Assembly (NCBI GenBank): GCA_902514485.1 | Contig: CABXQY010000001.1 | Span: 1-60,726 of the forward strand | Reading direction: 5' to 3' | DNA: 60,726 nt | Source: an uncultured Candidatus Poseidoniales archaeon | GTDB taxonomy: Archaea > Thermoplasmatota > Poseidoniia > Poseidoniales > Thalassarchaeaceae | Shown here: piece after piece, positions 2,207 to 48,259 of the stretch | Layout: each line of letters opens with the position of its first letter | Numbering within the stretch: position 1 is the stretch's first letter | Translations under genes and position numbers: made by a program | The notes under the pieces: generated by a model | Told to the model about the DNA's origin: nothing | The model's input: only the letters and a program-made list of their open reading frames with translations | Database searches by the model: none

Positions 2207-2234
2207 GTCAGAAAGCCTTGAACCGAATACTAAA

Positions 2235-2831: not shown

Positions 2832-2840
2832 GGAATTTTT

Positions 2841-5618: not shown

Positions 5619-5619
5619 A

Positions 5620-6600: not shown

Positions 6601-6601
6601 G

Positions 6602-22565: not shown

Positions 22566-22650
22566 TGGTGCAGGGGACAGGATTTGAACCTGCGAAGCAC
22601 TACGCACTGGGACCTAAACCCAGCCCCTTTGACCACTCGGGTACCCCTGC
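22566..22650 (-). tRNA. tRNA-Leu (anticodon UAG), class II long variable arm, encoded CCA
   Basis: The reverse complement GCAGGGGTACCCGAGTGGTCAAAGGGGCTGGGTTTAGGTCCCAGTGCGTAGTGCTTCGCAGGTTCAAATCCTGTCCCCTGCACCA folds as a cloverleaf. It has a 7-bp acceptor stem, anticodon loop TT-TAG-GT and T-loop TTCAAAT. Confidence 0.9.
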
Positions 22651-24418: not shown

Positions 24419-24434
24419 TTTAGGTTACCCTAAA
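24419..24434. promoter_or_regulatory. Palindromic operator-like site TTTAGG-ttac-CCTAAA (copy A), overlapping a TATA-like CCTAAATTTTAT
   Basis: Perfect 6+6 inverted repeat with a 4-nt spacer. It lies 10 nt upstream of the first possible start (24445) and 31 nt upstream of ATG 24466 of the single-lobe transferrin-like gene. Confidence 0.65.
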
Positions 24435-24444
24435 TTTTATCTGT

Positions 24445-25515
24445 ATGTTATTATTCGGTAAAGGTATGAAGGTAGCTACGGTTACAGACTGGGCAGTAAA
24501 AAATAAGGCAATATTGATGGTAGGTGTTCTACTATGTGCAGGGACTATATACATGGTTTTTGATGTCAATTATAAGGAATGTGACGATCAAGAGAATTGT
24601 CTTATTGTTGCTTTTGAAGTACAGGATACTTACCTTATTTGGGATAAAAACCCACAACATCTAGCCGACAAACTTAGTACACTTACAGGAATGGATGTAG
24701 AGATATATCCAGTAACTGATTCGGGTGCTGCAATTGAAGCCGTCAGACTAGGTAATGCAGATATTGCATTCATGGATGGTGCAGCGGCATGGTTAGCATG
24801 GGAAGTATACGGATTAGATGTCTTGGCTGCTGAAGAGAAAGCAGATGGTAGAGTATACTACAATGCAACTGCATGGGTAAAAGCAGACTCGGACATGGCG
24901 GAAGCTTACCTCGATGATGATGATACTACAGACCCATTTGCACTAATGGAAGGAAAAATCTCTTGCCATACAGGATGGCTAAAAAGTGCAGGAATGCTCA
25001 TCCCTATGGGTTATTTGATTGGTAATGGATATGCAGAAGTTGTAGGTGATGAAAATGAAATTGAGTCTCTAAGAGATACAGTGTATGGTTTCTTCTCAGA
25101 TGATTCTAGTATCCCTGAGGGAGGAACGCCTTACTCATCCTACAAAGGAGCACTTAGGTGCCTATCTGATGGAAAGGGAGATGTGGCACTAGCTAAAGAT
25201 TCAGTAGTAAATTCATACTGTACTGGAGAAGATCGCTACGATTGGTGCTTAGATATTGATGAATATGTAATGTTACCTGCATTTGGGCAAGCTCCCAGCC
25301 ACCCTGCCATGTATAATTCAGAAGTGATGGATGAAGAAACCGTTATTATTGTTCAAGAAGGATTGGCAAAACTTGGAGATGATGATGAAGGAAGAGAAAT
25401 CCTCAATGACTTATTGAATACAGATGGAATGGTTGTTGCTAACTCCGAAGATCACTTGGGGACTTACGCTGCAGCTATATCCAATGTACCTGGAATTCAG
25501 GCTTATTTTGAATAA
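24445..25515 (+). CDS. Single-lobe transferrin-like substrate-binding protein, membrane- or lipid-anchored
   Basis: Blocks match transferrin lobes: NADIAFMDGAAAW, RVYYNATAWVKADSD, GKISCHTGWLKSAGMLIPMGYL, YSSYKGALRCLSDGKGDVALAKDSVV, DWCLDIDEY and APSHPAMY. It has an N-terminal hydrophobic anchor. Confidence 0.75.
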   Translation: MLLFGKGMKVATVTDWAVKNKAILMVGVLLCAGTIYMVFDVNYKECDDQENCLIVAFEVQDTYLIWDKNPQHLADKLSTLTGMDVEIYPVTDSGAAIEAVRLGNADIAFMDGAAAWLAWEVYGLDVLAAEEKADGRVYYNATAWVKADSDMAEAYLDDDDTTDPFALMEGKISCHTGWLKSAGMLIPMGYLIGNGYAEVVGDENEIESLRDTVYGFFSDDSSIPEGGTPYSSYKGALRCLSDGKGDVALAKDSVVNSYCTGEDRYDWCLDIDEYVMLPAFGQAPSHPAMYNSEVMDEETVIIVQEGLAKLGDDDEGREILNDLLNTDGMVVANSEDHLGTYAAAISNVPGIQAYFE

Positions 25516-25554
25516 ACATAAAATCACATGATTACTTAAAATGAGAGGGAGAAT

Positions 25555-26742
25555 ATGAAGTATTTTGCTATATTTGTTCTAATAATTCTTTGTTCAGGAT
25601 TGACGGGGTGTATTGATTCTGAGGACGACTTTGAATGGCCAGAACCAACAGAATTTAATTGCGAATTATCCCTAGACTTAAATCTAGAATGTAAATTGTA
25701 TATGGAAGGATTCGAAACTCCACATCACTCAATTTCCAATCCTGAAAATGAGGAAATATGGATTATTTATCTTAACGGATTTGTTAAGTCATGGGATGGA
25801 GAGGAACTGGAAGAAATCGCCGACTTAAGTTCATTTGTGAATCGCTGCCACATGGAACAGGGGCTTCTAGGAATGGCCTTCGATGAAGATTTCAATACTT
25901 CAAAAACAGTACTGATATCATATATAGAGGAAGGTGATTGTGATGGCCCTAATGATTCAGATTTGATATTAGCATCAATAAAATTGGGGGAAAGTGGATT
26001 ACTAGATCCTTCTACTATTTCTTCTTTAAGAACCGTAGAACAACCTTACAGGAATCATAATGGAGGACACCTGATTAGTATTGGAGATAATCAATATCTT
26101 TGGGGCATAGGTGACGGAGGTAGCGCAAATGATCCTGAAAATAATGGCCAAAATAGGAGTAACTCACTTGGAACTATAAACCTTTTTTCATACGAAAATG
26201 GGAAAATTTCTCCCGTACTTAACAACTCAGAAGATGACCCATATATCTTACATCATGGTTTGAGAAATCCATGGAGATTTTCACTTGGTGAAGATAATAT
26301 GATCTGGATTGGAGATGTTGGACAAAATTGTTGGGAAGAAATAAATTTAGTTCCATTGTTTGAAAGAAAGAATCTTGGTTGGTCATTAAAAGAAGGTTTT
26401 CAATATTTTGACGAGGATGGAGATTGTTATGAAGAAGATGACCACGAGGACCATAGTGATGATGACCTGACTTACCCAGTTGTTGCTTATGGTCATGAAA
26501 ATGGAAATTGTTCAATCACAGGAGGATTTTGGATGGATTGGGGGCCGGAATCACTACAAAATGGATATTTATATGGAGATTTTTGCAGTGGGGAGATTTG
26601 GTTATTGAAAGAAACTGATGACGGGAAATGGAAAGAAAACTATGTCGGTTCAAGTGGTGGAATGATTGTCGGGTTTGGTAGAGGAATTGCTGATGAAATA
26701 TTAATTTTTCATTGGACTGGCGATATAGTACTAATTGAATAA
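25555..26742 (+). CDS. PQQ-dependent sugar (glucose/sorbosone) dehydrogenase-like beta-propeller lipoprotein
   Basis: Signal plus lipobox LTGC. Family blocks GLLGMAFD, YRNHNGGHLISIGDN, GIGDGG, HGLRNPWRFS and GDVGQNCWEEIN are present. Confidence 0.75.
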   Translation: MKYFAIFVLIILCSGLTGCIDSEDDFEWPEPTEFNCELSLDLNLECKLYMEGFETPHHSISNPENEEIWIIYLNGFVKSWDGEELEEIADLSSFVNRCHMEQGLLGMAFDEDFNTSKTVLISYIEEGDCDGPNDSDLILASIKLGESGLLDPSTISSLRTVEQPYRNHNGGHLISIGDNQYLWGIGDGGSANDPENNGQNRSNSLGTINLFSYENGKISPVLNNSEDDPYILHHGLRNPWRFSLGEDNMIWIGDVGQNCWEEINLVPLFERKNLGWSLKEGFQYFDEDGDCYEEDDHEDHSDDDLTYPVVAYGHENGNCSITGGFWMDWGPESLQNGYLYGDFCSGEIWLLKETDDGKWKENYVGSSGGMIVGFGRGIADEILIFHWTGDIVLIE

Positions 26743-26752
26743 TAAAAAGACA

Positions 26753-27736
26753 TCATTTATTCACACTAGATGGTAAAAAGATACTTTTCCAAGATGGGCG
26801 ATTAAGCCCAATATCTTCTGTGAAATATGAACGTGCCTTAATTGAAATAAAATCAATGATTAAAACTACTACGAAGATAATAATTAGGTATGCAATTACT
26901 TTATCATATTGTAAAAATTTCAAATATAAATTAATGTAGTATCCAATTCCTCCAGCACCTACTATTCCAATCACAGTACCATGCCTGAAATTATATTCAA
27001 ACATGAAAATTACTTGAGAGATTAAATCATTTGCACATTCAGGAATAACTACCTTAAATGCTATTTCAAACCTTGTAAGGCCCATTGCTTCAGCAGCATC
27101 GAGAGGAGTTTTAGTCATACCTTCTATTGCTTCATATTGAAGTTTACCGAGATACCCGACTGTATAGACAGTCATAGCTAAGACTCCTGCTAAAGGTCCA
27201 TATCCAACTAGTATTACAAAGAATATTGCCCAAATAATACTTGGTAAACTTCTGAACGCAGCCAGTAAGAATCTAGGTAAATATGACAAAGTAGAAACTA
27301 GAAGAAAAATGATTCCACCATCGTTCCATCTCGTCAAATATTCGTAGAAAAATGATGCATAGTCCAAATTACGTGAAGCTAATATTGAAATTGGAAGGGA
27401 TATAATCGCCCCAAATACTGTTGATACAAATGCAATTTTCATTGTCTCGACCATCCCGATCCAGGCAGTTGAGCAGGTAAAATCCATGAAAGTCGGGTAA
27501 ACAGTGCATACAGGATAAGCTCGCGGTTCAAGGACACTCCAATCAGGAGGCCATAATGATTCATTAAAGAATGTCACAAGATTACCAAGTCCTTGAGATG
27601 CCCTGCCCCAGTCATTAACCATTCCATCAAAAACAACGATGCTGAATAAGAATATTAGAATAAAAATTCCAAGCCATGAGCGTAGTGGACCAAAGAAAGT
27701 ATCTAAGAACTTCCTTAAAGGATTAAAATCATTCAT
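26753..27736 (-). CDS. ABC importer permease, PhnE family
   Basis: The block EAAEAMGLTRFEIAFKVVIPE...RHGTVIGIVGAGGIGYYI matches the PhnE signature (VGAGGIG). Its start overlaps the ATPase stop by 4 nt. Confidence 0.85.
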   Translation of the reverse strand: MNDFNPLRKFLDTFFGPLRSWLGIFILIFLFSIVVFDGMVNDWGRASQGLGNLVTFFNESLWPPDWSVLEPRAYPVCTVYPTFMDFTCSTAWIGMVETMKIAFVSTVFGAIISLPISILASRNLDYASFFYEYLTRWNDGGIIFLLVSTLSYLPRFLLAAFRSLPSIIWAIFFVILVGYGPLAGVLAMTVYTVGYLGKLQYEAIEGMTKTPLDAAEAMGLTRFEIAFKVVIPECANDLISQVIFMFEYNFRHGTVIGIVGAGGIGYYINLYLKFLQYDKVIAYLIIIFVVVLIIDFISIKARSYFTEDIGLNRPSWKSIFLPSSVNK

Positions 27737-28482
27737 AATTTAACCTCCATAGCGGTAGGTTCGGTGATAAATGGATTAGCTCTTCCATCATCAATTACTA
27801 GTAACCTATCTGCCATCATTTTTGCACGTGTAATATCATGCTCTACAACAAGAAGTGCAGAATTACTAGATTTGACATATTTTGTGACCTCCTTAAGGAC
27901 CATACCAACTGTTTTTTCATCTAGTTCACTTAGGAACTCATCAGCCATTATCAGTTCAGGACATTGAGCCAATGTTCTAGCAGTAGCAACTCTTCTCTGT
28001 TGACCTCCTGAAAGCCGCCTTATTGGTTCACTAATTTTATCTTCAAGGCCCATGGAGTTAATTGCCTGAATAGCTTTTTTCTTTGCAAATGAGGACGGTA
28101 AACAAACACCAATAAAAGGTATTGGAGTATTATGACCTGCATTTGCACCTAACATTACATTATGTAATACGCTTGCATGTCTAACTAACCCCAAACTTTG
28201 TGGCACATATCCTAACTTTCCTCTTTTAGGACTGTCAGGAATAGTTTTACCACATACTTCAATACTACCTGAGATAGGACTTATCAGACCTGCAATTGTT
28301 TTCAACAAAGTCGACTTACCGACTCCAGAAGGCCCGGCAATTGCAACAATTTCTCCAGGGAATATTTCTAGATTTGGTATCTGAACTAAAGGCTTATCAT
28401 GCTTATATCCTATCGAAACATCATTTAATCGTATAATTGGTTCAATATTCTTAGGAATATTTGTCATAGACTCACCCCCCAC
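27733..28482 (-). CDS. ABC importer ATP-binding protein, PhnC family
   Basis: Walker A GPSGVGKST, signature LSGGQQRRVATAR and Walker B LIMADE are present. The likely true start is ATG 28467, preceded by GGGGGGTGAG. Confidence 0.85.
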   Translation of the reverse strand: MGGESMTNIPKNIEPIIRLNDVSIGYKHDKPLVQIPNLEIFPGEIVAIAGPSGVGKSTLLKTIAGLISPISGSIEVCGKTIPDSPKRGKLGYVPQSLGLVRHASVLHNVMLGANAGHNTPIPFIGVCLPSSFAKKKAIQAINSMGLEDKISEPIRRLSGGQQRRVATARTLAQCPELIMADEFLSELDEKTVGMVLKEVTKYVKSSNSALLVVEHDITRAKMMADRLLVIDDGRANPFITEPTAMEVKL

Positions 28483-28496
28483 ACCCGATTACTAAG

Positions 28497-28512
28497 TTTA
28501 GGCGCCCCTAAT
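28497..28512. promoter_or_regulatory. Palindromic operator-like site TTTAGG-cgcc-CCTAAt (copy D, one mismatch)
   Basis: Located between the stop of the bilobal binding-protein gene (28570) and the ATPase start (28467/28482). Confidence 0.55.
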
Positions 28513-28569
28513 TCCTATTTGGTATTGACGGAGTGGAGTGAAAACTCAAAATTTACATTCAAAAAATAA

Positions 28570-30669
28570 TTAGTTTGCAAAGATATCAGAATAATATGAA
28601 GAAATATCAGGAATAATTGCTATGAATGACGAATACTGCCCTAGATGTTCTTGAGATGTCGCTCTGGTTAATCCGGATGTACCTAATATGTTATTCATTA
28701 TCTCAGAACCACACATATTTTTCTGAGATGTTTCATCAATTACATGTACTGAAATGTCATAACAACCTGTATATACCGATCCTCGTGTACTGAAATTTTC
28801 CAAATACATCTCATAGTTAAGTGAGATTAAAGCATTCAAGACCGCTGTTCTTGTCTGTATATCCAGCAACTCAGGATTATAGATTACAGAATCGCTTGGG
28901 ATAGGGGCAATAGCAGGGAGGGAGGTATACTCTTCAATATCTAAACACCAATTCATATTTTCTGAAATAACAACATTGTCACAATACATATTAACAGTAT
29001 TTTCTTCTAAAAATACAATATCTCCTCCGCCCTCAGAAAGACATCTTAGTGCTCCTGAATCGCCAAAATACGTATCATTTTGATTAGGTATTGATGAATT
29101 ATAATTGAAGAAAGAATAAATTATTTCTGATAAATAATCTATATCATTACTTTGATTTAATTCGAGATAATTATTTTTCGCTAAATAACTGATTGGAAGC
29201 ATCATACTTTCCACATCTGAAGAATCAGAATGGCAGGATGTTTTTCCTTCCAACAAATCAAAAGGATTAGTCAAAGGATCATTGTCTAAATGACTTATTG
29301 CGATTGAACTATTCGAATTAACCCAAGCTAAAGTATCGGAATATGTTCTACTATCTTCCATTTCTACTGCCGCCATTACTGCCAATTCATATTGTTTCCA
29401 TCCAACCCATGCCAACTCAGAATTAACAATTGCAATATCGGCATGACCATCTCTTAAACTGTTAAGTAATTCGTTTTGAGAATTAACAAAAAATATTTCC
29501 ACATCTATTTTTAATTTCTGAGATAGAAAATCGGCTAAGAGTTCCGGATTTTTATCTACATCATCAGATAATTTACCTAAATCATAAGCAATCTTAATTT
29601 GATTAATATCTGGGGAAACAGAAGTATTCAAGGAGAACTTATCGTTATAATAAGCAGAGATACCCGGTATATTGGAAATTAATGATGAATAACTACCCAA
29701 GTGTACTGAAGTGTTTGTTGCAATGAATCCAGGCGTATTAAGGATATTCTCGAGAATATTAGTCGCTTCGGGATCACTGCTCATTTCAACTAAAATATTT
29801 GTAACTTTACTTGTAATTTCTGAATCTAAAAAATTAGGGTTATACATTACTGGATGGCTAGGTGATTGCCCAAAAGCGGGTAATGCAATATACTCCTCAA
29901 TGTCAAGACACCATTCTTGATTGAGAGAAGAAATTTCATTATTACAAAGAATTTCTACGCTATTTTCTTCTAAAAAGGCAACATCTCCTTTTCCTTCCGA
30001 TAAACATTTCAAAGCACCCGAATAACCATAATATGGAGTTCCAGTGTCTGGAATTGAAGAATTTGGATTAAAAAATCCATGTATAGTATTTCTTATGGTC
30101 TCGACATCATTAGGATCTCCTATAATATTTGCATAACCTAGACCAATTAGGTAACCCATGGGAAGAAGCATACCCACTGATTTTAGCCATCCTGTATGGC
30201 AGGATGTTTTACCAGATAAAAGTGCAAACGGATCAGAATAGGGGTTATCGTCGAGATAAGCACTAGCAACGTCACTATCTGACTTTACCCATGCATTAGC
30301 ATTGTAATATGTTCTTCCATCGACATTAAGGTCTGCAGCTAAAACTTCTAATTGATATTGTTGCCAACCAACCCATGCGGCTCCAGCATCCATTAATGCA
30401 ATATCTGCATTGCCAAACCTCAGAGCTTCCACCATAGCACCCTCCGAGTCAACGCTGAACAGAGAAACATCATAATTTAATTTCTCAGAAAGATAATCTG
30501 CAAAAATCTGAGGGTTAGAATCGATGATGTCGATATTATCTTTGATCTCATATGCAATTACTAGAGTGCCAAGACTGCCTTCTTCACTATCATTACCGAT
30601 ACAACCTGAAACATAAGTCATTATCAAGATTGAAGTAATTAGAATAGAGACTAGCTTACCATTGGCCAT
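28570..30669 (-). CDS. Bilobal (tandem two-lobe) transferrin-like substrate-binding lipoprotein
   Basis: Signal plus lipobox VSGC. Lobe 1 (about aa 35-342) carries NADIALMDAGAAW, RTYYNANAWVKSDSD, GKTSCHTGWLKSVGMLLPMGYL, YYGYSGALKCLSEGKGDVAFLEE, EWCLDIEEY and SPSHPVMY. Lobe 2 (about aa 355-699) repeats the same block order with substitutions. GGAGTG lies 7 nt upstream of the ATG. Confidence 0.75.
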   Translation of the reverse strand: MANGKLVSILITSILIMTYVSGCIGNDSEEGSLGTLVIAYEIKDNIDIIDSNPQIFADYLSEKLNYDVSLFSVDSEGAMVEALRFGNADIALMDAGAAWVGWQQYQLEVLAADLNVDGRTYYNANAWVKSDSDVASAYLDDNPYSDPFALLSGKTSCHTGWLKSVGMLLPMGYLIGLGYANIIGDPNDVETIRNTIHGFFNPNSSIPDTGTPYYGYSGALKCLSEGKGDVAFLEENSVEILCNNEISSLNQEWCLDIEEYIALPAFGQSPSHPVMYNPNFLDSEITSKVTNILVEMSSDPEATNILENILNTPGFIATNTSVHLGSYSSLISNIPGISAYYNDKFSLNTSVSPDINQIKIAYDLGKLSDDVDKNPELLADFLSQKLKIDVEIFFVNSQNELLNSLRDGHADIAIVNSELAWVGWKQYELAVMAAVEMEDSRTYSDTLAWVNSNSSIAISHLDNDPLTNPFDLLEGKTSCHSDSSDVESMMLPISYLAKNNYLELNQSNDIDYLSEIIYSFFNYNSSIPNQNDTYFGDSGALRCLSEGGGDIVFLEENTVNMYCDNVVISENMNWCLDIEEYTSLPAIAPIPSDSVIYNPELLDIQTRTAVLNALISLNYEMYLENFSTRGSVYTGCYDISVHVIDETSQKNMCGSEIMNNILGTSGLTRATSQEHLGQYSSFIAIIPDISSYYSDIFAN

Positions 30670-30793
30670 ACTAACACTCCATTCTCAAACATACGAATAG
30701 ACACTAGTAATTTAATGTGAGTTTGTGGCATCGAACAATAGAAATAATTTATTCTGAAAGTTTTCTCGCCTTTTAAATCGTTATTTCAATACC

Positions 30794-30809
30794 TTTTTTT
30801 TAAAAAAAA
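30794..30809. terminator. T8A8 tract; it reads as an oligo-T run on either strand and may be an archaeal termination signal
   Basis: The sequence ccTTTTTTTTAAAAAAAAtgg lies in the 300-bp spacer between two co-directional minus-strand genes. Confidence 0.3.
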
Positions 30810-30928
30810 TGGGTTAACGAGAGACGCTAAAATTGAATGTGAGTCCCATTTTAACTTTGATGAAGCCAATGATTACCTGATGTGAGCCAGGATAAATCAG
30901 CGCCTCCCGTTACCGTTCAAGTATGTCC

Positions 30929-30957
30929 TTCGATGTGGGCAAAATGCCCACATCGAA
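30929..30957 (-). terminator. Perfect 13-bp stem / 3-nt loop hairpin 14 nt downstream of the stop of the Cys-module lipoprotein gene
   Basis: TTCGATGTGGGCA-aaa-TGCCCACATCGAA, all Watson-Crick. There is no adjacent oligo-T on the minus strand, so it may be an RNA-stability or processing element rather than a terminator. Confidence 0.4.
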
Positions 30958-30970
30958 ATCGTCAATTTAT

Positions 30971-32620
30971 TTATTGGAGTGTTCCAATGTCTTCCGCAGT
31001 TATTCCTAGCATATCCCAAGCTGGTTGTAGATGTGCGCGAACAGCGGCCTGATAGTCAGTTCCTGCTACTGGTACATTACTGAAATCATAGATTCCATTA
31101 ATTCCAGTTGTTCCAAATCCATCGAAGTGTGTAAATGCCGAACACTCTGCTTCAGTCATATCTGCATCAGTTGTATGGGACACCATATTATAACATCCAG
31201 TAAACATAGTAGCGCCATAATTCACATACCAACCATAAGATTCGCATGTAGTCTGATCTACTGCTGTGTCCCATGAGTGAGATACGCTGTTGTAGCAACC
31301 GTCTTGCCCAGCAACTGTGACATAATCTTCAACCCAAATATATGATGTGCATGTAGCATTATCATCGCTTGATGTTTCATGAGATACCATGTTGTAACAT
31401 CCAGTGAAAGTAGTGGAACCCCATGAAGCATTATCATAGTAATCCCAAGACTCGCAGATTGATTGATTCCATGAACTGTTCATACCATGAGATACACTGT
31501 TGTAACAACCTGTGTAAGTTTGTTCACCATAATTCTCTAAGAACATGTATCCAAGACATGAGGTCTCGTCACTGTCTCCAGAAACTTCGTGAATATTCAT
31601 ATTGTAGCAAATATCCTCACCATCACCCATATCATAATCAGTCATGTAGATGTATCCTGCACATTCATCAGCTGCCGCACCACTAACAGTCATAGTAACA
31701 CCATTGTAACAATCGTCACCAGGTGATGGATTCGCTTCAGCAACGTATTTTTCAATTACTCTCCAGAAAGAATATCCCTCTGCTTGATGTGTTTGAGCTT
31801 TTTCTACTGTATCATCAGTATTCATCTTGTGAGCATAACGTATTGTTGCTTGTGAGTAAATAATTACTAGATTCTTTACTATATCGTCTCTTGCAGCAGT
31901 TGCTCCAGCGAGATCTTCGGCTTGTAGTGCAGCAAGGCCCTCATTCATTGCTAAAAGAATTGCTGCATTTGCTATAGCAGTACCATCTGCATTTGCAGTA
32001 GCATAGTTACCTGCTCTCTTGTCTCCAGTAGCATACGGAGAGCATGAAGCATACTCATCTAGACCGTGATAAAACGCCCATCCTTCATCCCATGCGTGTT
32101 GTGCATCATCGGTGCCAAAGTTTCCAGCTTCTGCCTTGTTTATGGCTGCATTTAATTCATGAATTGCATATGCAACCATTATCTGATTTTGGACGCCTTT
32201 CTCAACAGCTTGCTCTCGAACACTATCTGAAGTTCCTTCAAAAATACCAGTTCCATCCAGTGCTGACATCAAGTAGTCATCTAAAGGTGAATCAGTACCG
32301 TAGAAGGTATCTAATCCATGTTGCTTACCAGTAGCATCTGCAAATCCTTGCAATGTTCTGTATGAACCATCGCTCTTTTCTGCATGCTTACCATTCATGT
32401 AAATATCTTTTACCCCATCCCAATCATGCTCTTCCGCTAGATCTTTGATATCACAAACATCTTCAACTAACATTCTATGATTATCAACATTTGAGGCGTA
32501 TTCATATCCGCCGTCTATTTCGTCAAAGTTATTATCAGTATCATCCGATAAACAGCCAGCAAAAGCTGCGGCTAACATACTTAATGTCATCATTATAGCA
32601 ATTATTTTATCATTTTTCAT
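30971..32620 (-). CDS. Secreted lipoprotein: unknown helical N-domain plus six tandem CYN.VSH...C modules
   Basis: Signal plus lipobox FAGC. GGAG lies upstream of the ATG. aa 304-496 contain six modules of about 30 aa, each with two Cys. Confidence 0.6.
   Translation of the reverse strand: MKNDKIIAIMMTLSMLAAAFAGCLSDDTDNNFDEIDGGYEYASNVDNHRMLVEDVCDIKDLAEEHDWDGVKDIYMNGKHAEKSDGSYRTLQGFADATGKQHGLDTFYGTDSPLDDYLMSALDGTGIFEGTSDSVREQAVEKGVQNQIMVAYAIHELNAAINKAEAGNFGTDDAQHAWDEGWAFYHGLDEYASCSPYATGDKRAGNYATANADGTAIANAAILLAMNEGLAALQAEDLAGATAARDDIVKNLVIIYSQATIRYAHKMNTDDTVEKAQTHQAEGYSFWRVIEKYVAEANPSPGDDCYNGVTMTVSGAAADECAGYIYMTDYDMGDGEDICYNMNIHEVSGDSDETSCLGYMFLENYGEQTYTGCYNSVSHGMNSSWNQSICESWDYYDNASWGSTTFTGCYNMVSHETSSDDNATCTSYIWVEDYVTVAGQDGCYNSVSHSWDTAVDQTTCESYGWYVNYGATMFTGCYNMVSHTTDADMTEAECSAFTHFDGFGTTGINGIYDFSNVPVAGTDYQAAVRAHLQPAWDMLGITAEDIGTLQ
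31133..31711 (-). repeat. Coding repeat: six modules of the form C-Y-N-x-[VNM]-[STI]-[HM]-x8-11-C-x-[SGA]-[YWF]
   Basis: The modules are CYNGVTMTVSGAAADECAGY, CYNMNIHEVSGDSDETSCLGY, CYNSVSHGMNSSWNQSICESW, CYNMVSHETSSDDNATCTSY, CYNSVSHSWDTAVDQTTCESY and CYNMVSHTTDADMTEAECSAF. Confidence 0.8.
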
Positions 32621-32637
32621 ATTTCTATCTCCGTGTT

Positions 32638-32653
32638 TTTAGGTCGCCCTAAA
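32638..32653. promoter_or_regulatory. Palindromic operator-like site TTTAGG-tcgc-CCTAAA (copy B)
   Basis: Perfect inverted repeat 18 nt upstream of ATG 32620 of the Cys-module lipoprotein gene, which probably places it at the TSS or 5' UTR. Confidence 0.65.
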
Positions 32654-32680
32654 CTTCCGAGACAGATAGAGTATATCAAA

Positions 32681-32696
32681 TTTAGGTGAGCCTAAA
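32681..32696. promoter_or_regulatory. Palindromic operator-like site TTTAGG-tgag-CCTAAA (copy C) in a divergent promoter region
   Basis: Perfect inverted repeat. On the minus strand it abuts the TATA-like CCTAAATTTGATATA about 45-60 nt upstream of ATG 32620. It is 51 nt upstream of the plus-strand gene start at 32747. Confidence 0.65.
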
Positions 32697-32746: not shown

Positions 32747-34765
32747 GTGAGTATACCTTCTCGATATATTGTGAGTTATTCTGGACGAACGAAAATTTTG
32801 ACGGCAATCTGCGTTATTCTTATGTTTTCGATGTTTTTCCCTCTGGAAAATGAAGATAAAGTACTAGATACAGAGATAATAACTAAAAATCAACTGGGCG
32901 GCGGTGGAGGAAGTATAGAAGATAGATGCAGTTCTATTACTTTCGAAGATATTCTGCCTTATACTCATGCACATTTCGATATTGTGGTCAATGATGACTG
33001 GGATTCTGCAGAGGTAGAAGCGAGAGCATGGATAAATGGTAGCAGTGTTGATTTGTTAAGAGAAAAACTCGACTCATATTTGGAAGAACTATATCCGAGC
33101 GGAGGAGATGGTTGGATCTCAACTGATGAAAAATCTGCTGTTGAGGCAGTTGCTTCAGAATGCATAGAATATGCAATGACTCGAATAGGATTGAGAGAGT
33201 CTTCCCCTCACAGAGGGGGCGTGGGATTAGATTGGAAGAATGCTACTTGGCAAGATAATGGCGTTATAATAGAAGAGTGGAATTTAGTCCCTTCTAATCA
33301 TGCAGATATAAGGGATTGTACTGCTATAGGATCTAGTAATGATTGTGAAGAAGTTCCTGTTTATCCCAATTCAGAAAGAGATTGTAATACCTTGGTTGAA
33401 ACTTCTGAGGGAGTAGATGAATGCAGACTTGAACTATGGATGAATGCTACGATGGTAATACCCAATATGGCCCAAGGAGAGGAGTTTACTCTCGCATTTA
33501 ATGCATCTAATATGACCAATGCAGTTCTAGACTTTACATTCCCTAGTAATCCTGATTTAAGATTAGATATGTGGGAAGAATGCGAAGGAAGAGATGTTGA
33601 ATTCGAGCCTATGACTCATGAAGATGCGCCGTTGAGAGGAACATGTGTCGGAGATGGCTCATCCACATATACATTTGAAAATAATGAAGATATCAAGTAT
33701 ATTCTATCCCCACATCGAAGTAGAGATGTTTGGCCTAGTGGAGAGGATATTTTTGCAGATTTTACAATTGCGCCGATACCTATTGACGAACCACCGGTTT
33801 GGACAGAAAATGCACCACTTGATGAATCATGGTTTCCTTCTCTAGAAAGTGGGGAAATAGTATGGGCAGAATGGGATAGCGTTTCTTCATGGTTTGTCGA
33901 TGAAAAACCACTTACTCAATTAGAGGTTAATTGTGAAGCTGATGAATCAGCAAATATATTCCAACGATCGGATAAATCATTCTCAGGAATTATACCAAGC
34001 GATGGAGTCGTAAGTGTTACTTGTGAAGCAATTGATGTCGCAGGACAGAGTTCAGGAAATAGAACTTGGCACCTTGGAATCCCAATTTCTGTATCGACGA
34101 CATCTAATATTCTCCAAAGTCCACACCCGATAAAGATTGAATTGAATCAAGGATGGCCGGAATTAAGTATAGACTATAGTTTCACACAAACTCAAAATAT
34201 TAATTTAGCTACAATTGATACAGTTACGATAATATCAGAAACGACATTAATGGTTGAATCAATGGGAATGAATCCAGGATTGGTTGATCTTTGGGTTGGA
34301 GTTTACGGAGAAAATGTATATCCCGTTGACAAGATATTTAGTCTAAATATAATTAAAGAGAGTTCACCACCTCTGATTTCTGTTTCCGAATATGGATGGG
34401 AATTAGATACTTGGAAGGCACAGGGTCAATTTAGTGACCCAGATGGAGAAGAAGTCGTATTTTCATTATCCATAGATAATATATCAGCAGGTAGTATATC
34501 TGTTTCGGGAGATTCTTGGAGTACTCCGATAATAAATTTCGGATTATGGGATGAAGGAATCCACGAAGTAAAAGTTATTGGTTGCGATATTTCATTGAAA
34601 TGTAACGAGGTTATTATGATGGTAAATAATTCTCATTTATTCAATACAATTGCTCCTCTTCCCGTCGAAAATCCTAAGGAAACTGGTTTTTTGCCCGGGC
34701 CGAGTATTGTTTTAACTATTTTAGCTCTAACTGTCGGTCTCATATACTCGACCCGACGCGAATGA
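32747..34765 (+). CDS. Large secreted surface protein with a C-terminal membrane anchor; function unknown
   Basis: GTG start and N-terminal signal anchor. The protein is acidic, has many N-x-S/T sequons and includes a HYR-like stretch (VSVTCEAIDVAGQSS). The C-terminus is GFLPGPSIVLTILALTVGLIYSTRRE. Confidence 0.55.
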   Translation: MSIPSRYIVSYSGRTKILTAICVILMFSMFFPLENEDKVLDTEIITKNQLGGGGGSIEDRCSSITFEDILPYTHAHFDIVVNDDWDSAEVEARAWINGSSVDLLREKLDSYLEELYPSGGDGWISTDEKSAVEAVASECIEYAMTRIGLRESSPHRGGVGLDWKNATWQDNGVIIEEWNLVPSNHADIRDCTAIGSSNDCEEVPVYPNSERDCNTLVETSEGVDECRLELWMNATMVIPNMAQGEEFTLAFNASNMTNAVLDFTFPSNPDLRLDMWEECEGRDVEFEPMTHEDAPLRGTCVGDGSSTYTFENNEDIKYILSPHRSRDVWPSGEDIFADFTIAPIPIDEPPVWTENAPLDESWFPSLESGEIVWAEWDSVSSWFVDEKPLTQLEVNCEADESANIFQRSDKSFSGIIPSDGVVSVTCEAIDVAGQSSGNRTWHLGIPISVSTTSNILQSPHPIKIELNQGWPELSIDYSFTQTQNINLATIDTVTIISETTLMVESMGMNPGLVDLWVGVYGENVYPVDKIFSLNIIKESSPPLISVSEYGWELDTWKAQGQFSDPDGEEVVFSLSIDNISAGSISVSGDSWSTPIINFGLWDEGIHEVKVIGCDISLKCNEVIMMVNNSHLFNTIAPLPVENPKETGFLPGPSIVLTILALTVGLIYSTRRE

Positions 34766-34768
34766 ATC

Positions 34769-35587
34769 ATGAGTTTCTCCGGGAGTGTCAGCCAACCATC
34801 TCATGAAGGAGGTTTGTTGGTATCTTTCGAAGGTAGGGCTCCGGGACTATATACAGGAATAAGAATTGTAGGTGGAAAATTCTTAGGAAGAGTCGATTCA
34901 GTAATTGGATCAGTAAATGGTGCATTCATTCATATCAAACCACTGGCAGAAGGCGTAGTAGCAGAAAATGCATTAGGTTCGCCTGTTGAGATTGCACCAA
35001 GAGATCGAAGACCACGTGATGATAGAAAGAGAAATAATAGAGGAAGAGACAATAATCGTGGTGGAAATGATAGACGAAGTTTCGATAGAGATATTCATAT
35101 GAAACCAGGGGATTGGCGTTGTCCAAAATGTAAAAATCATAACTATGCCAATAAACAATTCTGTAATCGTTCAACTTGTAACGAAAAGAAACCAAGTGGA
35201 AGTAATAATTCTTATCAGAGAAGAGGCAATGACCGTGGAAGAAACAATAACCGTGGAAGAGACAATAACCGTGGAAGACATAATACTGATGATTCTAACA
35301 TTAAACCAGGTGACTGGATATGCCCGAAATGTAAAAATCATAATTATGCAAGTAAAAATTTCTGTAACCGCTCAAGTTGTGATATGAGAAAACCAGGGGG
35401 GCCAACAAGTTCCAAAGGTAGTAGAAATACACCGGCTAGGGCGAGAAGACCTGATAGAAAATCTACTGAAAAACGAGGGAATAGTAATTCATCACGTAGG
35501 CAAACAAGTCGGCAAAGTTCATCGGGTTCTGGAAAAAGAAGAAGAGACAATAACAGAAGCGGAAAAAAGTTCAATTCAAGAAGATAA
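34769..35587 (+). CDS. gar1: Gar1-like (H/ACA RNP) domain fused to Arg/Asn/Gly-rich repeats and two RanBP2-type zinc fingers
   Basis: The N-terminal GLLVSFEGRAPGLYTGIRIVGGKFLGRVDSVIGSVNGAFIHIKP parallels archaeal Gar1 (GFLIVRT..VPSLNDRVVD...VGIVKDVFGPVKMPYVAIKP). The fingers are GDWRCPKCKNHNYANKQFCNRSTC (nt 35108-35179) and GDWICPKCKNHNYASKNFCNRSSC (nt 35309-35380). Confidence 0.7.
   Translation: MSFSGSVSQPSHEGGLLVSFEGRAPGLYTGIRIVGGKFLGRVDSVIGSVNGAFIHIKPLAEGVVAENALGSPVEIAPRDRRPRDDRKRNNRGRDNNRGGNDRRSFDRDIHMKPGDWRCPKCKNHNYANKQFCNRSTCNEKKPSGSNNSYQRRGNDRGRNNNRGRDNNRGRHNTDDSNIKPGDWICPKCKNHNYASKNFCNRSSCDMRKPGGPTSSKGSRNTPARARRPDRKSTEKRGNSNSSRRQTSRQSSSGSGKRRRDNNRSGKKFNSRR
35233..35286 (+). repeat. 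3 x 18-nt tandem coding repeat (ccgtggaagaNacaataa) encoding RGRNNN-RGRDNN-RGRHNT
   Basis: Read directly: ccgtggaagaaacaataa / ccgtggaagagacaataa / ccgtggaagacataatac. A related copy lies at about 35040-35070. Confidence 0.85.
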
Positions 35588-35607
35588 TTTCTATTTAACA
35601 GACGTCC

Positions 35608-36648
35608 TTGTACCCGAGGTTTAATTTCTTAGAACTAATACCGATGTTTATGGCGAAGGACTCAGAAACGATTTGGCTCGACGCTTTAGATTCAAGAAAA
35701 AGAGGAGATATTGATTCTGCAATAGAACTTGCTAAAGATGTAGTTCATGTGAATGAAGAACATGCTGATGCTTGGATGGGAATAGCAACCTGGTCTCTAC
35801 CCCCTCCATCTAGAGGAAAACAAATACAACCAACTCTCAAACAATCTGCCAAAGCAATGGCTGCTTTAAGGAAGGTTGTACAATATGATTCGAAAAATAT
35901 TGAAGCATGGAAAATCGGTGGCTGGATATTAGTAGATAACTTAGGTATGCTTGAAGATGCCCTTCAGTGGTGGGAAGAATACAGGTATGAATTCCCGAAA
36001 GATGTCACTCCAGTCATAGAACAAATTTCAATATTAGTTAGATTCGGACTATACGAAGAATGTGGCGAAAAAATATCAGAATTATTCAGCGGAAATTTAG
36101 ATACTCTTTCTAGTCAGCAGGCTGTAAGAATTGATGGGGTTAAGAGAATGGTTGAAAGAGCCGCCAATATGGAAAAGGAAGAAATTTTCAAGCCTCAAGA
36201 TTCTACACATCCACGATGGGAAGTAATTGAAAAAATGAAAAAAGTTAAGCCATTAAGTTCAACATTCTGGTTAATTGCTTTCATAGCCCCCGTTGTTTTT
36301 ATTTTTGGTAGCATATCTATGACATTTTTAGGAGGAAGTATACCTGGTTTCATACTTGTTTTTCTAATGATACTCGGAGCTTTTGGTTTCCTGACAAGGG
36401 CTTCGATGGGACTCTTACAAAGAAGGAACCGTCATGCATTAGATGTAGATAGGGCCATTGATTATGAAACCTCATCTGGGAAAATATGTATTCCTGAATC
36501 AATAAGGGGAAGCATTGTTTATAATTCAATGATTAAAAATCGCAGTCCTGCAATTAAGGAAAGACTAGATCTTCTAATTAAAGCAGATGAAAAGATAAGT
36601 TCTAAGTTCATACTAAAAATCCCTACTTGGGATTTAGAGGAAGAGTAG
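35608..36648 (+). CDS. TPR-like N-terminal domain plus two-TM membrane protein; function unknown
   Basis: The helical N-domain has a TPR-like pattern (AIELAKDVVHVNEEHADAWMGIA; NIEAWKIGGWILVD). Two adjacent hydrophobic helices sit at about aa 220-265. The likely start is an internal Met (MFMAKD). Confidence 0.45.
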   Translation: MYPRFNFLELIPMFMAKDSETIWLDALDSRKRGDIDSAIELAKDVVHVNEEHADAWMGIATWSLPPPSRGKQIQPTLKQSAKAMAALRKVVQYDSKNIEAWKIGGWILVDNLGMLEDALQWWEEYRYEFPKDVTPVIEQISILVRFGLYEECGEKISELFSGNLDTLSSQQAVRIDGVKRMVERAANMEKEEIFKPQDSTHPRWEVIEKMKKVKPLSSTFWLIAFIAPVVFIFGSISMTFLGGSIPGFILVFLMILGAFGFLTRASMGLLQRRNRHALDVDRAIDYETSSGKICIPESIRGSIVYNSMIKNRSPAIKERLDLLIKADEKISSKFILKIPTWDLEEE

Positions 36649-37990: not shown

Positions 37991-40900
37991 TTAATTTCCG
38001 CCTTTTTGTTGGGCATAGTAAGATGCATAGTATTGCTCAGCATACTGCCTAGCTGTTTGCTCATCATAACCGGATGCAACCATCTGTTGGACATAAGCTT
38101 CCACTGGATCCATCTGCTCGACACCACCAAACTGCTCTACTGCATCGTCATCACTATCTTTACCACCTCTGCCTCGGGCTACAAGAGTGACTCCAACTAT
38201 AGCTAGAATAGCAATTAAACCACCTATTCCTATGAAAAGCGGATTAATACCACCCGATTCAGAGCCACCACATCCTGAAGATGTAGGGTCAAGAACGCAA
38301 GCATCCTTAGGCAGTAAATTGATTACAATTTCTTCAGTCAATACATATCTACTCCCATCTCCCTCAGTTATTCTGAAGTAAAGAGTTGCACTTACACCAC
38401 TAATTGAATAAAGTTCAGATATGTCTAAAGTCATTGAGAAACCATCTCCATCACCTAAATTACTAGATACATTGTATTTACCTATTGACTTTTGAGTGAT
38501 TTTCTGAGTAGGAGTGTAATCCAAGATTAATGGATCTAACGATACCTCTATCATTACATCACTATTTTCAGCACCACCAACGATATTACCTACAATTGTC
38601 ACATCATCAGAGGATTGTGAGTCACTAGGTCTTGGCGAAGTGAAAGACCATACTGGTTGAGCATCGCCATCATCTTCTCCAACTATTATGAAATACATAC
38701 GATATTTGTTTTGAGTTTGCTTACCTGCTTTATCATAAACAATTAACTCGACTCTTACGTCTTTCTCAATTGTTGCACTTGTAGTGATATTTCGGAAAGT
38801 ATAACTCCACTCATCGGTTACTGCTGCAGGATTTTGCCAAACGTGTTGTTCGTCATTGAATTCACCAACTGGCATATCATTAATCACTCTCCATTCATAC
38901 AGAGCTATTCCTGATTCTCCTTCAGGTGCATCAGGATCAGTACTATTCTCACCTGTAAATTGAATTGTTGTCTCTCCCGTCTCAGATAGTCTCACTCTGT
39001 AAACCGGCCAATCAACTCCTGCGATTGGTTTAGTACCTGCAGGAGTGATATATTCAGAAGTCAAATCATCATGGATAATAGTTGCAGCAGAAATTGGGTA
39101 GAAATCATCTGCAAGTGTATCATTAGTGATTAGGCGAATATAAGTAATTCTAGTATGACCTGCGTCATCATGGAGGTAAAGTGTCAATAACCACTCTGCA
39201 CCAATTCGACAAGGTTCATCTACGCCCGCTGCACAAAATGACCCCATAGTTGGTATCGAAGGACTCAACTGATTAGTGTGACTTACCAAACCGGACTCAA
39301 GTACAGCTCCGTCCCAACCAGTGACTGAATCATTGTTACCTGATTCTAAATCCCAGTCTGCAGTTAGGCCAGGGATAGTTGATACATAATTGAATTCTAA
39401 ATCTGCATTGCTCTTAATATATTTATCACGATATGCAGCGGTAGTCGGATTGATATCAACGGATTCACCGTTAATTATCAGATCGAAATCTGTACCTGCA
39501 ATACCGAAGTCAATAGGATATGGAGTTAAGTGATAAGAAAGCATATTGGAAAGTAGAGGTATATTCTCCCCACCATAGGATTCAGAAACACTAGGGTTCT
39601 CTACATCAATAGTCGTAACAATTAATCCACCTGCACCTTTATTGCAAAGAGACATTAGAGAATGCCCTTGATCAGTATCTCTGAGTAATGTGTGGAAAGT
39701 CCCTCCAGTAACACTAATTCGACCACCACATGTGGCAGGTATCTGATTAGTTTGGACTTGGGATGCAACATCTATTCCAGCTGTTGCAACATAATTACCT
39801 GCATGAATTCCAGAAAATGTTACTTTATCAATACCTAACAGTATAGGATGATATGGGTCATCAATCGAGAGATCATCATAATTAATTCTGTTATCAGTTG
39901 AGAAATTATACTGATTTCTATCTTTTATTGCCATATCGAAAATTAATCTACCTGGGTCATATTCATTCTGATATGGACCCAAATGCATCTGTACAGTACC
40001 TCCATTGACCATGAAATTTTCTAGAACATCAACAACACTCAGACCATCGGTATCTCTAGTTGTATCCATTATTTCATAATAATCGCCATAAACGACGTTA
40101 TAATCAGTCTGCCAAGGTAGTAATACCTTATTGTAATGTTCAATCCAATCAGGTGTTGCGTATGTATTCCAGTCATCTACTCTTAATTGAGTGTAGGTCA
40201 TTTCCATAGCTTCAAGATCTTTCTTCACTTGCTGAAGTCGATTCTGATCAGTAGGATTAGACAATATTGCTACATCTACCTGATCATAGAACTCTATTTC
40301 AAAGAATCTCTCATTGCCTGAACTATTACCATCATCGGTGAAAGTTGCAAAGAAACTAATATTGTATTTATGTTCATCATACCAATTAGAATAAGGCGCC
40401 GTCCAATTAGCCCATGACCTCTCATGAGGGACTAAATCAAATGGCCCATTGTCCGAATTCTCCTCATAGACTGTTTGCCCCGTTTCTAAATCCACAATTC
40501 TCATAGTCAATTGATATTCTGCTTCAATAACTCCGTTCAATAATGGTAATACAAAGTCATGTGATGACGCACCATAAGCACCTTGCTGGTCCTTATTTGT
40601 GGTGTAAACACATGCATAAGTTATATCTGTAGTACAGTCCAAAATGTCAGGTTGCATCAAAGTGATATCAGCACTAGCAATACTAAACATTATTGTAGTA
40701 AAGTTATTTGCTAAGTTGACTTCATCTTCATTATACCACTTATCTAGAGGGTCAGTATTATCAAAAATTGTCTTTACATCAATTCGATAAATTCCACTCT
40801 GGAAATCATGATTTGCCACGTTTATTAATTGTCTCTCGGAGGCATCCATACCATTGACATCTACGGTGTAAGTGCCATCATCTTCGAAAGTAAATTCCTC

Positions 40901-43900
40901 AATTCGGATATTATCTATAGCGAATCCAGCGGACCCGGCATTTCCATTTACGCCATCGTCATTTGATAAAAATCTCCATGTCAAGGTAACATCAGATCCT
41001 GAAAGTGAAGTACATTCATCCTGCCATTCAAAGGTACTATCGCTGGTTTGATTTTGCAAGAATATATTTGACATGTCAACTGTAACTGACTTGACAATTT
41101 GCTCAGAGTCATACCAAACAACTGAATTATATTTATCAGAGAAGTCCCCGAAATACTCTACTTCGTCATATCCGTTATTATCGAAATCTTCACAAGAATC
41201 AAAAGGACGTGGCCCGTTCTCATTAAGGTCGGTCCAACTACCAAATATTATACCATTGAAATTTTCTCCATTCTTTGTCCATGAAACTTCCAATTGCGCG
41301 GCATCCCTGATTGCGAGAATATTGCCATCACTATCTTTCAGGTAGTCCCCCTCAGCATAATAATCGAATGTCAAATATGTGAAATCAGCTCCATCCGCTC
41401 CAACTGGTATATCTTCAATAGTCAGAGTCTCATTCCAATTATCACCATAACCAGTATCTGGATGGCCTAACCAATATGCATGATTATTGAAAACTCCTTG
41501 ATTTTGAGGAAGCATGCCATTAGATCCACTTGAGTCATCAATACGACTTCCATTTTCATTACCATCGTCAGTCCAGATTTGATCCGCAGAATTACCAAAA
41601 GAGAAATCTTCTATAGCAACTAAATCAGGAAGTGCATTGCGTACTCTTGCCTCAAGTTGGAAATCTGTTACTGTATTACCATAATTCTGAACCTTGACAT
41701 TAATATCTCTAGTCCCTGATGCATATCTAACGCCATTTTCTAGATCTACCCAAGGTTCTTCAGCCACACCTGGGTCGTAAAGATTGTCGACATTTAACTG
41801 GAATTTCACTTCATCATTTGTTGCATCAGCATTTAGGAAACCGGAAGGATTTTCGAGAGTTGTAGAAATATAGTAGGTCTTGTTATCTACGAAATCGGAG
41901 GTTAATGAAACATCACGTGAAGCACCAGCGCCGAGATTTGTAAATGAGATTTCTTGACTTACTACTTCTTCAGTTCCGAAAGTAACATCTCTCTTCCTGA
42001 TAGAAATATTATCAAATGCAAAACCATCCAAACCTGTATCATAAGATGCACCTTCTGGTCCAACTGAACCTACTAGTCCACTTCTAAATCTAAATCTTAT
42101 ATCGATTACTTGACCAGCATAAGGAGTCAAATCAATTGAATCGATCTTCTCTTGATCGGGAGATTCTGAGCCCTCCTCTGTGAAATTTAGCCAACCGGTT
42201 ATGGTCTCACTAGAAATATCACCATTGTAAGTATTGTATTCCGGATCTACACCCTGATACAGAAGACGGAAATAGCGATCATTATCCCACCCTCCAGCAA
42301 AGAACACTTGTTCCCAACCACTTCCATCACTCCATACTTCAACACTGCATGAATCTTCATACAACCAACGTTCAACAACATCAAACTGTTCGGCAAGATA
42401 TAGTTGGAAGAAAGAAGCACTGCACATTGCCCACATGTCAAGGTAAGCAGCATCAGAACCTGTCAAGTCTACATTTTGAAGAATTACTGCTTCGTCTTGA
42501 TGGTTATAATATCCAGAATCTGATTCGTTCTGACCTCCCTCATAATCGAGTCCAGCCCAATAATAGTTTGTAGGGTTAGAGTCTGCTTCCCATGCTGATG
42601 CATTTTGATTTACAGTTGAACCAGTTTCTACATGCCAAGATGAGTCTCCTTCATCAAATTCTCCCGTATAAGAGAATTTTTCCCAAGCACACGAGTTACA
42701 ACCAGATGTATCTTCATTACCATCAAAATCATTAGCATATACTATTGTATCTACACCACCTAATACTTCTTTCACTTCTAGGTCAACATCTACACTTCCT
42801 GAAATTGGATTTAATCCTGTATTTTTAATTGTGACATTGACATATCTGTTTCCTTCACCAAGTTGAGCGGCTCCAGTTGCAGGATTATATGAAGCAGGAG
42901 CTACAGAAACATCTGTGATACCTACATCTTCATTGTCAAGAGATAATACTGAGAGGAAATCGCCTGCACCAGGCCAACCCTGAGTATCTAGCCACATCGC
43001 ATTATTAGCAAATCTGTAAGCGTAATCACGTTGCCCTATCACAATTTCGAATGCACTGTCTTCACCACCTTGTAATTGCCCCGGGTGCGCCATAGTAGGC
43101 CTTCTTCCAACATCAAAAGAAAGCCCTGGAAGATAGCCATTACCATTAGGATTACCAAGAAGTATCTCCACTGAATTGATTTCTCTCAAATTATCAAGAA
43201 GGAGGAAGGTCTGATTCTGAGAAGTAGAATCTTGAATTCTTGTTAAGGTTAACTCAGTAGGAATAAAGAAATCATATATTCCGTCTTGATTAATATCTTC
43301 AATTGTGATAGATGCACCTTTGAAATCACCTAGGTAGGCGTAATTTTGAGTAGTCCAAGAGGAACCGGACCCATAGGCATATGACACATTACCGGTCAAA
43401 CCATCGATAGCTGCAATCAGATCAATCTCTCCATTGTTATCGGTATCCTTGATATCTATCCCATACAGTGGTTCATTGTGCTCAGCATCTAATTTGAACT
43501 CATGAACTCCTTGAGCACCGGGAGTTAATGGATTTGGGTATTGCCCCTGAAGGCAATCATATTCTAGGACAGTCATATTGTCATAATGCCCTACTGAAGT
43601 CCCCACTCCTGTATTATATGGAGGGGTTCTAAGTAACCAAATATCAAGATCTTCACAATCACCAATACCACCGCCACCGGGGAATCCCCCGCCAGTTACG
43701 GTTTCACCATAATGGCCAAGCATCATGTCAGTGTAAAGTCCGGTTGTAAGAGGGACTGCAAGCGTTTGTTGAGCAGTTAGTAATGTTGGATCTGGTCCTT
43801 TATAGATCTGAATATATTGATTTGTAGCGGTATTATCTCTAACTACCATAACAATATCTGCATTACCATCGCCATCTATGTCGCCTACTTCCATATCAGA

Positions 43901-48221: not shown

Positions 48222-48259
48222 GAAGATGCCTAATCAATGGGTTCAAATAAATCCTAAAA

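Follow-up and report, generated by a model that had tools for sequence, protein, structure and literature searches.

The 60,726-bp stretch of DNA analysed here (the window; contig CABXQY010000001.1 of an uncultured Candidatus Poseidoniales archaeon) encodes a cluster of predicted iron-uptake genes whose promoters carry a 16-bp palindrome, TTTAGG-N4-CCTAAA (the box). We searched all 60,726 bp with the pattern TTTAGGNNNNCCTAAA, allowing at most one mismatch, and took 100 dinucleotide-preserving shuffles as the null. Exactly four matches were obtained against 0.17 expected, and none of the 100 shuffles reached four. Box A (24419-24434, TTTAGGTTACCCTAAA), an exact copy, lies upstream of the gene for a single-lobe transferrin-like protein, and box D (28497-28512, TTTAGGCGCCCCTAAT), with one mismatch, lies upstream of an ABC transporter ATPase gene. 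Boxes B (32638-32653, TTTAGGTCGCCCTAAA) and C (32681-32696, TTTAGGTGAGCCTAAA), the predicted proximal and distal operators of the FEA1 promoter, are both located in the 126-bp divergent region between the gene for a FEA1-like Cys-repeat lipoprotein and that for a 672-aa protein. Raising the tolerance to two mismatches added only two matches in the window, both intracoding and at chance level. The search reproduced the four palindromes and the gene positions that a first-pass annotation had picked out by reading the sequence, and the CCTAAA half-site that it had mentioned near 48251 proved to be a bare hexamer whose partner half-site is absent.

The single-lobe gene (24445-25515, plus strand) encodes a transferrin/phosphonate-binding-like substrate-binding protein (Pfam PF12974, PF00405). 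Its true start is probably ATG 24466 and not the first ATG in that open reading frame (ORF), at 24445, because orthologous promoters place the ATG about 31 nt past the box; its mRNA would be leaderless. Downstream in the same operon is a GSDH-family (glucose/sorbosone dehydrogenase-like) gene (25555-26742, plus strand; PF07995), and this gene pair is kept in relatives. The minus strand carries an ABC transporter permease (26753-27736; PF00528) and the ATPase (27733-28482; PF00005), whose start is likely ATG 28467, behind a G-rich Shine-Dalgarno-like stretch.

The main target of the box is the gene for the FEA1-like lipoprotein (30971-32620, minus strand; PF07692, Fea1), which is homologous to proteins that algae induce at low iron. 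A double-lobe transferrin-like binding protein (28570-30669, minus strand; PF12974 and PF00405, two lobes) is encoded downstream of it; the gene order FEA1 then transferrin-like is kept in relatives, and we infer that the two genes are co-transcribed. The operon divergent from FEA1 (32747-36648, plus strand) encodes the 672-aa surface protein, a Zn-ribbon (RanBP-type) protein and a TPR protein. In relatives it either diverges from FEA1 or lies downstream of a transferrin-like gene under box control. This operon probably belongs to the regulon, and box C may also act on its 672-aa gene.

The C-terminal Cys-repeat modules (CYNxVSH...) of the FEA1-like protein differ in copy number among its relatives (homologues P0036-P0120). 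Total lengths are about 413 or 549 aa and reach about 700 aa at most, with the N-terminal Fea1 domain conserved. The named homologues of this protein belong to Candidatus Thalassarchaeaceae or Poseidoniales.

Conservation, promoter layout and targets of the box

The comparison set comprised 80 loci around Fea1-like homologues, one genome per species (1.31 Mb), spanning Thalassarchaeaceae and Poseidoniaceae with FEA1 protein identities from 95% down to about 45%. The loci and the window together hold 166 exact copies of the box, against 0.11 expected from base composition over the 1.31 Mb of the loci. With at most one mismatch allowed, 208 sites were found against about 3.9 expected. By a crude longest-ORF gene call, 190 of these 208 sites are intergenic, and most of the 18 "coding" cases reflect over-extended start codons.

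The six bases of each arm were fixed by the search itself, but the flanks are informative as well. C never precedes TTTAGG, G never follows CCTAAA, and A/T is enriched two bases out, while the four spacer bases vary freely among copies. The 185 copies at target promoters comprised 150 exact copies, 30 with single pair-breaking changes, three with wobble pairs, two doubly changed and uncompensated, and none compensated. Since no compensated change stands against 30 pair-breaking ones, selection acts on the sequence of the arms rather than on a hairpin, as expected where a protein reads the DNA.

The positions of the boxes were compared with TATA-like elements and transcription starts, which are sequence predictions throughout. 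At the single-lobe transferrin-like promoter, box A occupies the position of the B recognition element (BRE), directly upstream of TATA-like TTTTATC. This putative TATA element (24435-24442, plus strand, TTTTATCT) is conserved in relatives, and the layout of box, tTTTATC, about 25 nt and ATG recurs in 27 orthologous promoters. In the ATPase promoters the box lies between the TATA-like element and the start, and box D itself directly follows TATA-like CCAAATAGGA, with its distance to the ATPase ATG downstream being 29 nt. The putative TATA element of the ATPase-permease operon spans 28513-28527 (minus strand, caATACCAAATAgga), and a block CAATACCAAATA/CAATACCATATA (also CATATA) directly upstream of the ATPase box is conserved in more than 20 loci. 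Close relatives have the one-mismatch form of box D, ATTAGG...CCTAAA, and more distant relatives the exact one.

At the FEA1 promoter, a putative TATA element (32671-32680, minus strand, TTTGATATAC) is bracketed by boxes C and B. Box C abuts it in the BRE position. Box B lies 17 nt upstream of the FEA1 ATG (32620), with GGAG between, and covers the predicted transcription start, which at about 25 nt past the TATA-like element would fall inside it. The order across loci is distal box, TATA-like element at once, 10-27 nt, proximal box, and then GGAG and ATG or ATG directly; in most loci the TATA-like element between the boxes reads tttgATATAc, aattATAAGa or ctttATGTAt. The start-to-start spacing of the two boxes is 34 bp in 14 loci, 43-45 bp in 37 and 53-56 bp in two (43 bp in the window), in steps of about one helical turn (~10 bp). 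This quantised spacing suggests a phase constraint between two bound dimers, or between them and the TATA element or start. All three layouts would place a bound dimer where TBP/TFB or polymerase would clash with it, which fits repression.

To define the targets, all 1052 called proteins were clustered and a box was scored within -150/+60 of each gene start. A box was found at 68 of 70 FEA1-like genes, 39 of 91 ABC ATPase genes, 27 of 65 transferrin-like genes, 25 of 44 genes for the 672-aa protein divergent from FEA1, and five of six ferrochelatase genes. All other families together had a box at 17 of 674 genes, mostly divergent neighbours of targets, and the G3P dehydrogenase, AdoHcy hydrolase, TPR, Zn-ribbon, permease and GSDH genes each scored 0. 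In MGIIa-type loci, the boxes upstream of FEA1 head a long operon with genes for a large surface protein, Peripla_BP_2 binding protein, FecCD permease, ATPase, flavodoxin and HugZ/DUF2470-like protein. Judged by their annotation, the box targets form a coherent set of iron-acquisition and iron-sparing genes.

These comparisons bear on several claims of the first-pass annotation. Its view that invariant arms with free spacers mark the site of a dimeric regulator was upheld over the 80 orthologous loci. Its placement of the boxes on or next to TATA-like elements was confirmed, both elements and box positions being conserved in relatives. It had also proposed that the box should recur in the orthologous clusters of relatives, where it was found throughout the order Poseidoniales, and should be missing from unrelated promoters, where the count of 17 in 674 agrees with it. 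The link that it drew to an iron-related cluster now extends over Fea1, transferrin-like, FecCD/Peripla_BP_2, flavodoxin, HugZ-like and M28-ZIP targets. The last of these is a peptidase-M28/ZIP transporter fusion preceded by a box in one genome (L058:3710-6031, plus strand), an unusual architecture for a metal importer.

Identity of the box and of its probable regulator

The four palindromes are very probably operators, set on iron-uptake promoters, for a DtxR/IdeR/TroR-family repressor that works as a homodimer and is activated by metal. The data establish the sequence of the box, its specificity, conservation and promoter geometry, and its identity with sites defined by experiment for the DtxR family, whereas we infer the protein that reads the box in this organism, its metal and the sign of regulation. 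In a study of IdeR by crystallography and electrophoretic mobility shift assay, each monomer reads one CCTAA repeat and a single dimer binds the half site (Marcos-Torres et al., NAR 2021, PMC8464063). The target of one DtxR/IdeR dimer was redefined there as the 14-bp TTAGGNNNNCCTAA (PMC8464063). The box of Poseidoniales (Marine Group II, MGII) holds TTAGGNNNNCCTAA exactly, plus an extra T/A on each side, and agrees with the actinobacterial IdeR/DtxR iron box in half-site pentamer, 4-nt spacer and iron-uptake targets. The classical actinobacterial box (19-bp TTAGGTTAGSCTAACCTAA), however, consists of two overlapping dimer sites on opposite faces, whereas the MGII box is a single-dimer site. In MGII, additional strength of repression seems to be supplied by another box, separate from the first and 34-45 bp distant. 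The promoter machinery also differs, being archaeal (TBP/TFB) in MGII and sigma-70 for IdeR/DtxR in Actinobacteria.

An archaeal precedent is TroR, a DtxR-family protein of Haloferax volcanii, whose motif by chromatin immunoprecipitation sequencing is TTTAGGC-NNN-CCTAAAANAN (Martinez-Pastor et al., NAR 2024, PMC10783522). TroR represses iron-uptake promoters in iron-replete cells, often with two motifs per promoter, either of which is enough, and it activates some genes, such as dpsA (PMC10783522). In 49 kb of plasmid pHV3 we found four matches to TTTAGG-N4-CCTAAA with at most two mismatches, exact copies among them, against 0.13 expected. All four lie at the TroR-controlled siderophore-operon promoter and the neighbouring ABC binding-protein promoter. 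The TroR operator and the MGII box thus have in common the core TTTAGG(C)-N3/4-CCTAAA, iron-uptake promoters, often two copies near the TATA element, and an archaeal host. They differ in that the TroR host is a halophile with three DtxR paralogues whose targets are siderophore synthesis and hydroxamate transporters, whereas the MGII targets are FEA1-like and transferrin-like systems. The TroR motif also lies about 100 nt upstream of start codons (PMC10783522), whereas in the MGII loci the distance to the start codon is 0-60 nt, with the boxes bracketing the TATA-like element.

Archaeoglobus fulgidus MDR1 resembles the proposed MGII regulator as an archaeal, metal-dependent DtxR homologue that targets an ABC importer. 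Bell et al. reportedly found in 1999 that it represses an ABC metal importer by binding near or downstream of the TATA element and blocking polymerase recruitment. The sequence of its operator, reported as GTT-N8,9-AAC (PMC3074139), differs from the MGII box. As regulator candidates the first-pass annotation had named DtxR/IdeR-, Fur-, TrmB- and Lrp-type proteins; the first stands, as the published operator sequence matches, and the other three are not needed. The Fur box, of the GATAATGATAATCATTATC type, is an iron-responsive repressor site at uptake promoters that is read by a different protein family. It is unrelated in sequence to the MGII box, and nothing in the MGII data points to Fur. 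The novelty of the motif had been overrated, as both motif and mechanism are already known from bacteria and haloarchaea.

An unbiased scan of metagenome contigs with the palindromic 22-mer ANNTTTAGGNNNNCCTAAANNT gave at least 120 loci from all kinds of habitats. In nine of the 120 listed loci, a DtxR-family gene starts within about 60 nt of the box (phmmer E 1e-27 to 1e-8; IdeR, DtxR, MntR), whereas no DtxR-family gene was found in 120 viral contigs bearing the same pattern (994 kb). Because DtxR genes adjoin the box in these metagenome loci and not in the viral control, the box is a widespread autoregulatory operator of the DtxR family.

The arrangement varies among these loci. A single box is shared by a divergent pair of IdeR-like and MntR-like genes at L178:2125-3290, and L113 has three boxes around its DtxR gene. 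Boxes directly upstream of DtxR-family genes were also seen in L157, L175, L119, L148, L112, L199 and L087, which come from unrelated environmental genomes.

In the mechanism that we propose, the winged helix-turn-helix of each monomer would read one TTAGG/CCTAA pentamer, and the half-sites, being centred 10 bp apart, would lie on one side of the helix. With enough intracellular Fe(II), the dimer in its metal-loaded form would bind the boxes immediately upstream of the TATA-like element (A and C), immediately downstream (D) or across the predicted start (B). The bound dimer would exclude TBP/TFB or RNA polymerase, and the genes for the FEA1-like lipoprotein, the transferrin-like binding proteins and the ABC importer would be shut off. 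When iron is scarce, the apo-repressor would leave the DNA and the uptake genes would be expressed.

Several points weigh against a DtxR-type repressor. No DtxR-family gene was found in the window and the 80 loci (1.37 Mb) by six-frame phmmer with IdeR, DtxR and MntR at E<=10, the IdeR query having been checked against PDB 1fx7, and none in 10 kb of sequence that lies upstream of the window and is carried by a longer contig from the same population. The earlier remark that the cluster contains no regulator gene is borne out by this search and by the ORF and Pfam survey, and in the rest of the window the ORF listing and Pfam gave no metal regulator gene either. When a profile of ten box-associated DtxR sequences was run against a set of 5.8 billion proteins, all 8000 candidates passed, and the search was swamped by Bacteroidetes-like sequences, which made up the top 120. 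The assignment thus assumes a cognate regulator in Poseidoniales genomes. Gene content points to iron as the metal, but some members of the DtxR family sense Mn or Zn, and one of the targets is a ZIP transporter. TroR also activates (dpsA), and repression at promoters with the order box then TATA is argued from gene function. The TATA boxes and transcription starts, too, are predicted from the DNA alone. DtxR-family regulators are normally encoded away from their regulons, and for this reason the absence of a regulator near the regulon is weak evidence.

A highly conserved small protein (core about 75 aa, ...TEFE.RLLKWISASDFVEVPWSTKRAAEAFKV.EKEVYEALA.LT.K...IQI.Y..G.IRIVAD) is encoded between the box-controlled ABC permease and G3P dehydrogenase genes in 33 of the 80 loci, for example at L012:15725-15973 and L030:6694-6945 (both minus strand). 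Neither Pfam nor PDB gave a match for it. It could serve the iron system as a small DNA-binding or accessory protein; as a local regulator it was rejected, having no family match and being absent from the window although all four boxes are there. An apparent mention of DtxR in MGII in the literature was traced to a preprint error; the published version reads "formerly Crenarchaea" and has nothing on MGII.

Alternatives to a DtxR-type repressor

A dimeric regulator from outside the DtxR family, such as an unrecognised small winged-helix protein, could have converged on the DtxR-type box or taken it over in Poseidoniales. The lack of a DtxR homologue in the 1.37 Mb around the regulon and in the 10 kb beyond the window speaks for such a reader, as does the conserved familyless protein of about 75 aa that adjoins the box-controlled ABC operon at 33 of 80 loci. 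That protein is missing, however, from the window, which keeps all four boxes, and the sequence searched amounts to less than 5% of the summed genomes, in a family whose members usually lie apart from their targets. The box is moreover identical to sites bound by DtxR-family proteins in bacteria and archaea, and DtxR genes stand beside it in nine of the 120 listed environmental matches. We consider a reader of this kind unlikely.

The boxes might instead be activator sites, at which a regulator upstream of BRE/TATA would recruit TBP/TFB under low iron. Boxes A and C do lie directly upstream of the TATA-like element, a position of some archaeal activators, and TroR activates dpsA in Haloferax; but A and C abut the TATA element and leave no room for a separate BRE, and boxes B and D, downstream of it and over or beside the predicted start, are placed as repressor sites are. 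The targets here are without exception genes of uptake or iron sparing, and in Haloferax the same motif represses iron-uptake genes, either of two copies being enough, so activation is in our view very unlikely. It is scarcely credible that the palindrome acts as a hairpin in the RNA of the 5' leader or is a generic core-promoter element of these archaea. A 6-bp stem closed by a 4-nt loop can form at each box (-5.5 to -8.6 kcal/mol), and boxes B and D may be partly transcribed, yet any palindrome would fold into such a stem, and boxes A and C, upstream of the TATA element, would not be transcribed. The RNA reading was rejected on the covariation count, with single changes breaking the stem and no compensation in the 185 promoter copies, and on the Rfam search, which gave no match at the sites. 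For a generic element it can be said that half of the box occupies the BRE position; this was rejected on the restriction of the box to few gene families, as it is near only 17 of 674 genes outside the main target families and the genes divergent from them.

Implications and other features of the window

Marine Group II is an uncultured archaeal group, abundant in the surface oceans. In the literature searched we found nothing on iron regulation in Marine Group II and nothing combining phytotransferrin with Marine Group II, and two large comparative-genomics papers do not discuss iron uptake or its regulation. The conserved DtxR-type box offers a computational handle on the MGII iron-starvation regulon. 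It marks the FEA1-like lipoprotein, the transferrin-like proteins, the flavodoxin and the HugZ-like protein as iron-acquisition or iron-sparing genes, and the genes so marked are candidate MGII iron-stress markers for metatranscriptomes. It also extends the TTAGG-N4-CCTAA operator, known in Actinobacteria and haloarchaea, to a third distant lineage. In the unlikely case that the reader is a protein from outside the DtxR family, a different protein would have taken over, in one of the most abundant archaeal groups of the ocean, an operator that lineages from Actinobacteria to haloarchaea share. The operator would there control a ferric-iron uptake pathway of algal-type FEA1/ISIP2a and transferrin-like proteins.

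One survey of MGII counts "lactoferrin-like" proteins among the extracellular peptidases (Tully 2019, PMC6336850). These are probably the transferrin-like proteins encoded in the window at 28570-30669 and 24445-25515. If so, the adjoining ABC importer and the DtxR-type boxes argue for ferric-iron binding, and the annotation should be revisited.

The remainder of the window consists of housekeeping genes, including one for an archaeal-type dehydroquinate synthase II; this gene and the names of the FEA1-like homologues place the window in a Marine Group II archaeon. The sole clear transcription factor in the window is an HTH_10 (bacterio-opsin-activator-type) protein (1556-2206). Its gene is followed by a 2Fe-2S/molybdopterin/FAD (CoxSLM- or xanthine-dehydrogenase-like) gene set (1556-7558 in all, plus strand) with no box nearby. 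Just beyond the iron cluster, a tRNA gene (22569-22650, minus strand; Rfam RF00005, 57.7 bits) stands between the genes for a 687-aa membrane protein and G3P dehydrogenase. The cluster is flanked by a 2167-aa ORF (37991-44494, minus strand), homologues of which also flank it in many relatives.

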